Positions 4,645-14,481 of a stretch of 64,000 bases of DNA are shown one piece after another. The translations under genes were made by a program, and so were the position numbers. Each line of letters opens with the position of its first letter. The stretch's first letter is position 1. The DNA is from a virus (lineage: Duplodnaviria > Caudoviricetes): positions 138,720-202,719 of IMG/VR virus record IMGVR_UViG_3300035390_000014, one strand, 5' to 3'. The notes below the pieces were generated by a model. The model was not told the DNA's origin. It saw only the letters and a list, made by a program, of their open reading frames with translations, and searched no databases.

Positions 4645-4727
4645 GCAGAAGTCGGTCAACGGTAGATCACCTGCCTTCCAAGCAGGCGCTTTAAGCATTG
4701 CGGGTTCGATTCCCGTCTTCTGCTCCA
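4645..4727 (+). tRNA. tRNA-Gly(TCC) with extended variable region
   Basis: Acceptor GCAGAAG/CTTCTGC, anticodon arm CCTGC-CTTCCAA-GCAGG, 13-nt variable region, T-loop TTCGATT, CCA. Confidence 0.85.
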
Positions 4728-8948: not shown

Positions 8949-9024
8949 GCCGGTGTAGCTTATTGGGAGAGCCGAGAACTCTAAATTCTTGATTGAGTAA
9001 GTTCGATCCTTACCATCGGCACCA
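8949..9024 (+). tRNA. amber suppressor-type tRNA (anticodon CTA)
   Basis: Acceptor GCCGGTG/CATCGGC, D arm GCTT..GAGC with GG, anticodon arm GAGAA-CTCTAAA-TTCTT, T arm GTAAG-TTCGATC-CTTAC, A73, CCA. Confidence 0.85.
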
Positions 9025-12141: not shown

Positions 12142-13116
12142 ATGAGTAGATTAATTTATGTTCCTCAATATCCAGCTAACATGCGCTATCAGGAATGGTG
12201 GCTTTCTGAGTTCACTAAAGAGTTTGAAAAAGAATATGATGAAGTAGAAATTCTTGGACTAAATTGGTTGGTACAAAATATGGATTATGTTAGTAGTGAA
12301 TATGATACAGCCATGTTTTCTCCAATTAATAAAGCTGCTAGATTTGAAACATCACAAATGGATGACTATATGGCTCTTGATATACGTGATGATGATACCC
12401 TATTTCTCTCTGACATAAGCTTTCCTGGGTTGTTTTGTAATGTCCTATACCATAAGACGTGTCCAAAAATGTACGCGTTCTGCCACGCCACATCGCTTAA
12501 TAAGTATGATTATTTTGCACCTATGCGTAAACATAAAAAGAAAATTGAATTAAATCACGCTCAGTTATTTGATGGTATTTTCTTTGGAAGTTATTATAGT
12601 ATAAATAAAACTAAATGGTCTGAAAAAGGTATTAAGTGTCATAGAGTAACACTACCAGCGCCTCCAGAAGATTTAATTAAACCAGTCCATGTCAGTGATT
12701 ATAGAGATATTGATATTGTTTCTGTTTGTAGACCTTCTATTCAAAAGGTAAATAAAAAACTTGAGAAAAAAGTTGAACAAGCTTTAGGTATTAAAATACA
12801 TAGAGAAGAAGTTAATACTTGGGAACAGTATAATATTTTACTAGCCAGATCAAAAGTATTACTAATTTCGACAAAAGAAGACACTTTTAACTACACGATC
12901 ATGGATGCTATTAGATGTGGTTGTATTCCGTTGGTTCCTAATACATTATGTTTCCCTGAAATTGTTCCATTGTATTGGCGATATAGTCATGCAGGAAATT
13001 TAATTTTAAAATTGCAACATATATTTAATGATAAAACATTTATTTTACCAGAAATGATTTGTCAAGATGAAGTTGATAATTTTTTTAAAAATATAATTAA
13101 AATAATGAAGAGGTAA
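12142..13116 (+). CDS. GT-B (GT4-like) glycosyltransferase
   Basis: C-terminal SKVLLISTKEDTFNYTIMDAIRCGCIPLVP..FPEI resembles the GT4 E-x7-E region. Confidence 0.7.
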   Translation: MSRLIYVPQYPANMRYQEWWLSEFTKEFEKEYDEVEILGLNWLVQNMDYVSSEYDTAMFSPINKAARFETSQMDDYMALDIRDDDTLFLSDISFPGLFCNVLYHKTCPKMYAFCHATSLNKYDYFAPMRKHKKKIELNHAQLFDGIFFGSYYSINKTKWSEKGIKCHRVTLPAPPEDLIKPVHVSDYRDIDIVSVCRPSIQKVNKKLEKKVEQALGIKIHREEVNTWEQYNILLARSKVLLISTKEDTFNYTIMDAIRCGCIPLVPNTLCFPEIVPLYWRYSHAGNLILKLQHIFNDKTFILPEMICQDEVDNFFKNIIKIMKR

Positions 13117-13120
13117 ACAT

Positions 13121-13975
13121 ATGTTATGTGATTATGGTTGTGGTAAAGAGGCTACTCACCAATTTAAAAACGGTAAGTGGTGTTGTTCTAAACTATCAGT
13201 ACATTGAGCTAAAATAGTTTCTATTAGGTCAATAGAAATAAAGAAAACTGCTAATACTCAAAAACATAAAGATAAAATGAGTAAAGTAATTAAAAAAATA
13301 TGGAAAGACCCAAATCATATTTATAATGATAAAGAACATCAGAAAAAGAGAAATAAAATCTTAAGTAAAGCTCATTCTAAACCAGAAACAAAAAAACTTA
13401 GATCAAAAATAATGAAAGAAAAATGGAAAGATAAAAATTCTGGATTGAATAACTCTAAAAGAAGTGAAGGAGCTTCAGAATCAATGATAAAAGTTTGGAG
13501 TTCTCTTAGTGAAGAAGAAAGAAATCAGTGGTGTATTAACTGTTCTGTAGGATGGACTGAAGAAAAAAGGATAGAAAAATCTAAAGTTGCTAAACAAAAA
13601 TGGTCAGAAGATGATTATAGAATTAAAATGAAAGATGGTAGACATAACTCTCCAAATAAGGAAGAAGAACAACTAGAAGAATTATTAAATAATTTATTTC
13701 CCAATGAATATAAATTTGTAGGAAATTTTGATTTATTTATAAATGGTAAAAATCCAGATTTTGTAAATATTTTAAGTAAAAAAGTTATAGAATATTTTGG
13801 TTCTTATTGGCATAGTGAATTAATGACAGGTGAAAAAGAATATATTCATGAAAATAAAAGAATAAATCATTTTATAAATAGTGGATATAATTGTTTAATT
13901 ATTTGGGATTTTGAATTTAAAAATAAGAAAGAACTTATTAAAAAATTAAAAAAATTTAATCAGGAGATATTATAA
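13121..13975 (+). CDS. homing-endonuclease-like protein (N-terminal Cys motif, basic repeats, PD-(D/E)XK/Vsr-like C-terminus) with an in-frame TGA at 13205-13207
   Basis: AGAGGT RBS before ATG 13121, same frame as the 13277 ORF, which has no RBS; NPDF..KVIEYFGSYWH..CLIIWDFE nuclease motifs. Confidence 0.65.
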
Positions 13976-14481
13976 TGCCTTTTCGGACTTTTTTTGACTG
14001 GTGTTTTGATGGAAACATTAAAAATGAAATACCTAGTGGTGAAGGGGTTCCTGAGATTTTAAAATATAATTCACCAATTCATTCAGATTTTTTGATGAAA
14101 TCTTTTGTTACAAATGGTAAGTTGAATCATTACTTAAATAAATATCTTAATAATATTGGAGTTAGATATATTAGTAAAGAAGATTTATTTTATTTTTATA
14201 AACAATGTGTAATTGATTTTAAAATTAAAAGAGGTGATATTCATTATGTTGGGTGGTCAAAAAATGATATCTTATTTACTAAATTATCAAAGAAAAGACC
14301 TTTATTAAAGAAAGATGAAATACAAATATTATGTGAAATAATTGATAAATCAGATGATAAGGATTCTATATATAGGTCACTTGGTATTGATAAAAAAGAA
14401 GTAGAGAAAAAGAAAATAAAAAAGAAAGTCACCAAGATAAGTAGTAAGAATTTTATTGCTCAAAATTTTGGAATAATGTAG
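13975..14481 (+). CDS. possible clamp-loader small subunit (T4 gp62-like)
   Basis: Size, position before the polymerase and a weak LFYFY..KRG..W.K resemblance. Confidence 0.35.
   Translation: MPFRTFFDWCFDGNIKNEIPSGEGVPEILKYNSPIHSDFLMKSFVTNGKLNHYLNKYLNNIGVRYISKEDLFYFYKQCVIDFKIKRGDIHYVGWSKNDILFTKLSKKRPLLKKDEIQILCEIIDKSDDKDSIYRSLGIDKKEVEKKKIKKKVTKISSKNFIAQNFGIM

Follow-up and report, generated by a model that had tools for sequence, protein, structure and literature searches.

Is the single in-frame UGA at codon 29 of a phage homing-endonuclease gene read through with the help of the hairpin that follows it, so that the gene encodes a selenoprotein, or does the codon mark a selfish gene that has begun to die? 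The locus lies in the window, by which we mean the whole stretch of 64,000 nucleotides analysed here; it spans bases 138720-202719 of an IMG/VR virus record of 202.7 kb that was obtained from sediment. The record is 65% complete according to CheckV and has a GC content of 28-30%. We consider hairpin-dependent recoding of this UGA to be probable, and on the comparative sequence evidence the codon is more likely to be a new selenocysteine (Sec) site than the scar of a dead gene.

The endonuclease gene and its in-frame UGA

Starting from the ATG at 13121, the frame reads MLCDYGCGKEATHQFKNGKWCCSKLSVH, meets the TGA at 13205-13207, resumes with AKIV and stays open to the TAA at 13973-13975. The ATG at 13277 lies in the same frame, 156 nt or 52 codons downstream of the first. 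No start codon (ATG, GTG or TTG) occurs between the TGA and 13277, and no clear Shine-Dalgarno sequence was found ahead of ATG 13277. The start at 13121 has one, which overlaps the 3' end of the upstream 324-aa gene (TAA stop 13114-13116). The initial annotation had described just this arrangement, with a start at 13121 that bears a ribosome-binding site, an in-frame UGA, and a frame that runs on into an ORF at 13277 without such a site, and the sequence bears it out. The read-through frame 13121-13975 contains that single TGA, no frameshift and no second lesion; it is most likely one intact homing-endonuclease gene. The features of the locus are as follows.

13107-13113, plus strand: Shine-Dalgarno sequence GAAGAGG for ATG 13121, read from the sequence
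13121-13975, plus strand: read-through coding sequence of a free-standing homing endonuclease, 284 codons and TAA, from its translation, syntenic full-length homologues and AlphaFold2
13121-13204, plus strand: zinc knuckle, codons 1-28 (C3, C7 and C21/C22, with codon 29 as the fourth ligand), from near-invariant residues, pLDDT and dN/dS
13205-13207, plus strand: in-frame TGA, candidate Sec codon U29 in the column of the fourth knuckle Cys, from alignment to Cys-type orthologues
13217-13239, plus strand: SECIS-like hairpin, 8 perfect base pairs and one G-U pair, loop AGGUC, from folding and genome-wide counts
13277-13975, plus strand: 232-aa ORF reported by standard gene calling, without the knuckle and the first helix, from the ORF list and database entry P0002
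13652-13972, plus strand: C-terminal nuclease domain, residues about 178-284, from alignment invariants, a profile against PDB and Foldseek

The 284-residue product is a Vsr-like free-standing homing endonuclease of the I-Bth0305I type. Full-length homologues of the read-through protein (P0001) in the protein database span 282-301 aa, and the architecture of P0001 consists of a Cys4 knuckle (C..GCG....KNGKWCC......C), long helical repeats, annotated as NUMOD3 in relatives, and the C-terminal nuclease domain. All the nuclease motifs are intact in the window copy (PNK.E, GKNPDF, IE.FG.YWH, HE..RINHF and GY.CLIIW), as are the invariants of the family alignment, E182, K210, P212, D213 and F214 together with FG.YWH. 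When the family profile was compared with PDB, it matched 3r3p (I-Bth0305I) with E = 1.6e-7 and Vsr with E = 4e-3. The AlphaFold2 model has a mean pLDDT of 87.5, with 92-95 in the knuckle, and its best two Foldseek matches are again I-Bth0305I, at the top (3r3p, TM 0.73), and Vsr. Relatives carry the annotations PF04480, PF18741 and PF07460; Pfam and PHROGs scans of the window's read-through protein itself scored no family.

The gene is syntenic in four relatives. P0003, P0004 and P0005 occupy the same locus in related phages, between the orthologues of the 324-aa gene and a 168-aa gene, and the locus lies upstream of a family-B DNA polymerase fused to UDG. The gene's closest relative shares no more than 59% identity with it, and the best full-length match in a metagenome scan has 33% identity; tblastn and blastn searches of 50,697 phage records found no relatives.

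The UGA stands in a column that is otherwise occupied by Cys. The orthologues L006, L007, L010 and L011 read TGT-CCA there, within CAT TGT CCA (His-Cys-Pro), whereas the window reads TGA-GCT, within CAT TGA GCT. Three of the six bases in these two codons therefore differ, and Ala takes the place of the Pro found after the Cys in most knuckles. Among the other distinct knuckles from viral and metagenome contigs, Cys occupies the column in 76/76, and three paralogues from other parts of this genome read C-P there, in agreement with the Cys that the initial annotation had given for similar phage domains. A relative without the fourth Cys also appears in the alignment (P0008). Judged from these alignments, the UGA replaces an invariant zinc ligand. 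The near-invariant residues of the knuckle are C3, C7, K16, N17, K19 and C22, and in a pairwise comparison with L006, in which synonymous sites are near saturation, dN/dS is 0.06 for the knuckle and 0.42 for the whole gene. By this measure the knuckle is under strong purifying selection.

A homologue of the endonuclease with UGA at the column was found neither in 2.9 million viral contigs nor in the best 80 metagenome loci. Since no relative has UGA at this place, the endonuclease site comes without conservation or covariation of its own. A search of the viral contigs for the pattern NGKWCC-x6-TGA returned 11 matches, all of which were off-frame chance occurrences and were rejected.

Hairpins after UGA codons in the same phage

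A spacer of 10 nt separates the UGA from a perfect 8-bp stem, in which TTTCTATT (13218-13225) and AATAGAAA (13231-13238) close the loop AGGTC (13226-13230), exactly as the initial annotation had described it. A G-U pair between 13217 and 13239 can lengthen the stem to 9 bp. Seven of the stem pairs are A-U and one is C-G, and the loop presents G23, G24 and U25, numbered from the U of the UGA. The isolated hairpin has a folding energy of -5.1 kcal/mol (z = -4.6; 0/200 shuffles as good); in a context of 60-66 nt, the fold is not significant.

The hairpin exists, and it is rare by chance. The 203-kb genome contains 91 perfect hairpins per strand with at least 8 bp and loops of 3-8 nt, or 0.45 per kb per strand, and a perfect hairpin of at least 8 bp with its loop 16-37 nt downstream accompanies 0.8% of all TGAs in the genome. 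With a descriptor defined after sight of the phage's three hairpins, namely a stem of at least 6 bp closing a GGT-containing loop at offset 20-28, 12/8834 TGAs (0.14%) were retained. Only two of these 12 have an open reading context, the one in the endonuclease gene and one in a zinc-ribbon gene. A relaxed form of the GGU-loop test, applied to the 410 TGAs with at least 20 open codons on each side, passed seven, and the only ones with a protein-coding look lie in a PAAR gene and in the endonuclease gene. A codon-usage score for listing real in-frame UGAs was discarded, as it favoured antisense frames. When positions 12800-13600 were searched with Rfam for SECIS families at a permissive threshold, only noise was returned.

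The exact 21-mer of the hairpin has no other occurrence in the viral contigs. At the equivalent place, the Cys-type genes L006, L007 and L010 are unstructured and have no hairpin. The initial annotation had counted TGT-bearing relatives with the same hairpin as evidence against its claim; such relatives do carry TGT, the hairpin is absent from them, and the claim survives this comparison.

Two other genes of the phage have a UGA at a Cys position, each followed by a hairpin. In the PAAR spike-tip gene, the UGA lies at genome position 89029 within the motif AAHC-U-GIPCHGG, and the hairpin GCCAUGGA-GGU-UCCCUGGC follows after a 10-nt spacer, as in the endonuclease gene. Most of about 50 PAAR relatives have Cys-Cys at this place, and the UGA is kept in L046/L283, L078/L079 and L288, in each case with a hairpin. 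In L046/L283 and L078/L079, the Ser codon is UCC and is paired in the stem, and AGU or the lack of a Ser is the rule among the Cys forms examined. Conserved coding sequence makes up most of the PAAR hairpins, and the endonuclease gene could not share it with them. In one PAAR relative (L083, match 1501-1782), the usual column has Cys-Cys and an in-frame TGA occurs in a different column (...AATS-U-SPDV).

The second site is in the zinc-ribbon gene (L041, minus strand), where the UGA (genome position 69345) falls within DCIG-U-NHSF and is followed by the hairpin AAUGUAU-GGUU-AUACAUU. A relative at 69% identity, which comes from the same sample as the phage of the Cys-type endonuclease L007, keeps the UGA and the identical hairpin; another, at 47% identity, has Cys. 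These relatives were obtained from the protein database, and none was found in the viral contigs. The zinc-ribbon gene contains a second UGA 17 codons later (genome 69291), which has no hairpin and is apparently a true stop. The same two-UGA arrangement occurs in L275, where a pipeline translated both as Trp.

Counted from the U of the UGA, the GGU in the loop starts at nt 22 in the PAAR gene, nt 23 in the endonuclease gene and nt 25 in the zinc-ribbon gene. The three sites are thus alike in replacing a metal-ligand Cys and in having a GGU-loop hairpin at nt 22-27. They differ in that the UGA and hairpin are kept in relatives of the PAAR and zinc-ribbon genes, whereas for the endonuclease, whose gene is dispensable, the site stands alone; it is less secure than the other two. 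Because conserved in-frame UGAs cannot be nonsense mutations, comparison among these relatives makes it very probable that specific UGA codons are recoded in this phage clade.

Decoding machinery, candidate host and rival readings

The record encodes 26 tRNAs and a tmRNA. Neither selA, selB or selD nor a tRNA-Sec or any tRNA with a UCA anticodon was found in the 203-kb record, which is 65% complete, and no tRNA-Sec turned up in the records of five large phages related to this one, of which CheckV rates two as complete. A phage-borne tRNA-Sec was rejected, since every Rfam match to this family in the phage scores under the cut-off and lies on an ordinary tRNA. With sel genes and tRNA-Sec missing from the phage record, any recoding must use host factors. 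The best of these sub-threshold matches are four tRNAs of normally short-armed classes that have long variable arms (83-92 nt), none with a UCA anticodon: a Gly tRNA at window 4645-4727, and Lys, Met and His tRNAs at genome 124858-124949, 126695-126783 and 130894-130980, respectively.

A clue to the host comes from a Cache-domain histidine kinase of the phage, whose best 80 matches among 185,579 species genomes are almost only from Desulfobacterota, which we treat as the candidate host clade. All five such Desulfobacterota genomes tested carry selD with one in-frame TGA (selD loci L265-L273). Clean SECIS hairpins were found in 7/10 selD loci, with a spacer of 13-14 nt, a stem of 6-8 bp and a G-rich loop of 3-5 nt; in these seven, the first G of the loop is at about nt 24-26. 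The selD elements of the candidate host clade have energies of -8 to -11 kcal/mol. In one of the genomes (G002), selD is present in four full-length copies, all of which contain an in-frame TGA. A separate observation concerns UAG: a tRNA with a CUA anticodon, which would read this codon, lies at window 8949-9024 (genome 147668-147743) and is labelled 'tRNA-Pyl' by ARAGORN. Marine Desulfobacterota are reported users of both Sec and Pyl (10.1101/2021.03.15.435355).

In the recoding that we favour, the hairpin 10 nt downstream of the UGA would act as a bacterial-type SECIS. It would recruit host SelB with Sec-tRNA(Sec) to the ribosome paused at the UGA, and Sec would become the fourth ligand of the N-terminal zinc knuckle in a full 284-residue enzyme. 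Where recoding failed, RF2 would terminate translation after 28 residues, and no nuclease would be made from the start at 13121. The output of a potentially toxic enzyme might in this way be kept low and dependent on the selenium supply of the host, which would be the regulatory benefit. The inserted residue is most likely Sec, with Cys delivered by a tRNA(ReC)-type route as a minor variant. As to how the site arose, we hold it evenly balanced whether the protein is a newly evolved selenoprotein, in which a third Cys codon would have turned into UGA while a SECIS arose in the adjacent variable linker. If so, the change took place in a phage lineage that was already borrowing the host Sec machinery for two metal-site cysteines, and it would have placed selenium in a zinc knuckle and made a selfish nuclease that is produced only with host selenium and SelB.

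The presence of two conserved sites of the same kind in the same phage means that the prior for recoding is no longer negligible. In addition, both the Cys position and a hairpin at SECIS distance are expected under recoding, whereas under a nonsense mutation they would be two unrelated coincidences. On the other side, the stem is weaker than the selD elements of the candidate host (-5.1 versus -8 to -11 kcal/mol), and Sec would be without evident benefit here, since Cys itself serves in the three paralogous knuckles of this phage. The phage selenoprotein proposed by the initial annotation is therefore upheld in part: the Cys column, the hairpin, the two conserved UGA sites elsewhere and the use of Sec in the probable host clade speak for it, while the lack of a UGA homologue and the dispensability of the gene speak against it.

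The principal alternative, which we regard as unlikely although it retains real weight, is a recent nonsense mutation in a dispensable selfish gene, by a T-to-A change (TGT to TGA), with a chance hairpin in an AT-rich variable linker; the gene would then be a young pseudogene or at best a knuckle-less 232-aa remnant. It fits with the UGA being unique to the window genome among its relatives and the 76 surveyed knuckles, with the loss of the Pro after the Cys, with the weak AU-rich stem, and with perfect 8-bp hairpins being not rare in this genome at 91 per strand. It also fits the nature of the gene, which is probably a selfish, dispensable mobile element that is decaying in the phage clade. 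The orthologue L007 (6001-6908) is frameshifted in the nuclease core, which leaves ORFs of 253 aa and 49 aa, the latter carrying the end of the nuclease domain. A more distant relative from marine sediment (X4) may be without the gene: its contigs seem to join position 12837 or 13082 to 13987, at mostly <90% similarity, a signal of low reliability. Against this alternative, two independent coincidences are needed, one that the mutation struck an invariant Cys and one that it fell before a GGU-loop hairpin found at 0.14-0.8% of TGAs. On a rough count, some 130-150 single-step changes in the gene would create a stop codon; a random nonsense mutation on a knuckle Cys is therefore unlikely, at roughly a few percent of them. 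The two other UGA-at-Cys sites of the genome carry the same signal, and there it is kept in relatives. Finally, the gene has no second lesion and a knuckle dN/dS of 0.06, so that only a very recent nonsense mutation would fit.

The other alternatives have much less in their favour. Hairpin-dependent insertion of Cys through a SelB-delivered tRNA(ReC)-type tRNA, which would yield an ordinary Cys4 knuckle enzyme, is improbable. In such a system, UGA is read as Cys with a downstream SECIS, and it is known from some Desulfobacterota, the candidate host clade (Vargas-Rodriguez et al. 2018, as cited in PMC13582414). Cys would also serve equally well at all three phage sites, which are metal-ligand cysteines; however, the phage record has no tRNA(ReC)-type tRNA, its tRNA-Cys(GCA) is ordinary at 75 nt, and Sec is available, as the Sec-type selD in 5/5 Desulfobacterota genomes checked indicates. 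Lower still stands termination at the UGA with re-initiation or independent initiation at ATG 13277, which would give a working knuckle-less nuclease and a 28-residue by-product. The 232-aa ORF does retain all the nuclease motifs and most of the helical repeats, and P0008 is a relative that lacks the fourth Cys; yet there is no Shine-Dalgarno sequence, 69 nt lie between stop and restart, the hairpin goes unexplained, and the knuckle would be useless although no other part of the gene is as constrained. We give scant credence to read-through without a SECIS, whether by a near-cognate tRNA (Trp or Cys) or in a reassigned code. The phage does interfere with decoding through its own tRNA-Trp(CCA), tRNA-Cys(GCA) and CUA-anticodon tRNA, but a code with TGA as sense was rejected, since TGA is an ordinary stop that ends 67/268 long ORFs (TAG ends 34/268) and reading it as sense brought no coherent gain. 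No tRNA with a UCA anticodon is present, and the hairpin would again be left unexplained. The Hirsh UGA-suppressor form of tRNA-Trp has U11-A24, whereas the D-stem of the phage tRNA-Trp has a C11-G24 pair. An error of sequencing or assembly at the TGA, a possibility also raised in the initial annotation, is hardly credible. It would concern a single base at a coverage of about 9x in the probable source sample; against it, a 168-nt contig from a second, independent sediment sample is identical over 13103-13270, which makes an error in one assembly unlikely, so that the TGA is the same in the assemblies of two samples. The codon pair TGA-GCT differs from the orthologues at three of its six bases, not at a single one.

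Novelty and comparison with known systems

Our literature search found no description of a bacteriophage-encoded selenoprotein, and phages and viruses go unmentioned in a 2026 review of prokaryotic selenoproteomes. Mechanistically this would be the bacterial route already known, and the novelty lies in where it would operate: at a zinc-knuckle ligand of a homing endonuclease encoded by a phage. If the reading is true, host Sec decoding would be used at three phage sites, all of them metal-ligand cysteines and none a redox centre, an uncommon role for Sec. Among the three sites, close Cys-type orthologues without the hairpin are available for the endonuclease alone, and they would make it a natural before-and-after pair for the joint origin of a SECIS and a Sec codon. 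Because gene callers split such genes, as database entry P0002 illustrates, phage selenoproteins would be missed systematically.

With respect to the enzyme, the C-terminal catalytic domain is common to the window protein, I-Bth0305I (3r3p) and Vsr (1vsr, 1cw0) by profile and fold. The DNA-binding part differs from both, being composed of a Cys4 knuckle and long helical NUMOD3-like repeats, and unlike I-Bth0305I, which is intron-encoded, the window gene is free-standing between two phage genes.

With respect to decoding, the selD SECIS elements of Desulfobacterota and the phage elements have in common a spacer of 10-14 nt, a stem of 6-9 bp, a loop of 3-5 nt and GG or G at about nt 22-26. They differ in composition: the selD elements are GC-rich with the loops GGA, GGC, GGGAU and GACU, whereas the phage elements have GGU loops, with AU-rich stems in two of three. 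The letters of the endonuclease loop and its distance from the UGA lie within 1 nt of those of E. coli fdhF (loop GGUC). An in-frame UGA at a Cys column, a stem-loop within the ORF and a small G-containing loop characterize the fdhF-type Sec-UGA and are found in the window as well, but the window stem is perfect and AU-rich and is without the bulged U of the fdhF element. The reference for a bacterial SECIS is the consensus of Zhang and Gladyshev in the form described in PMC1088965. The tRNA(ReC)/SelB system, in the account cited above, shares the same signal of UGA plus SECIS and inserts Cys rather than Sec. Compared with the bacterial Sec-UGA prototype, the candidate site in the endonuclease lies in a phage gene, has no UGA homologue and no linked sel genes, and would place Sec at a structural zinc ligand instead of a redox centre.
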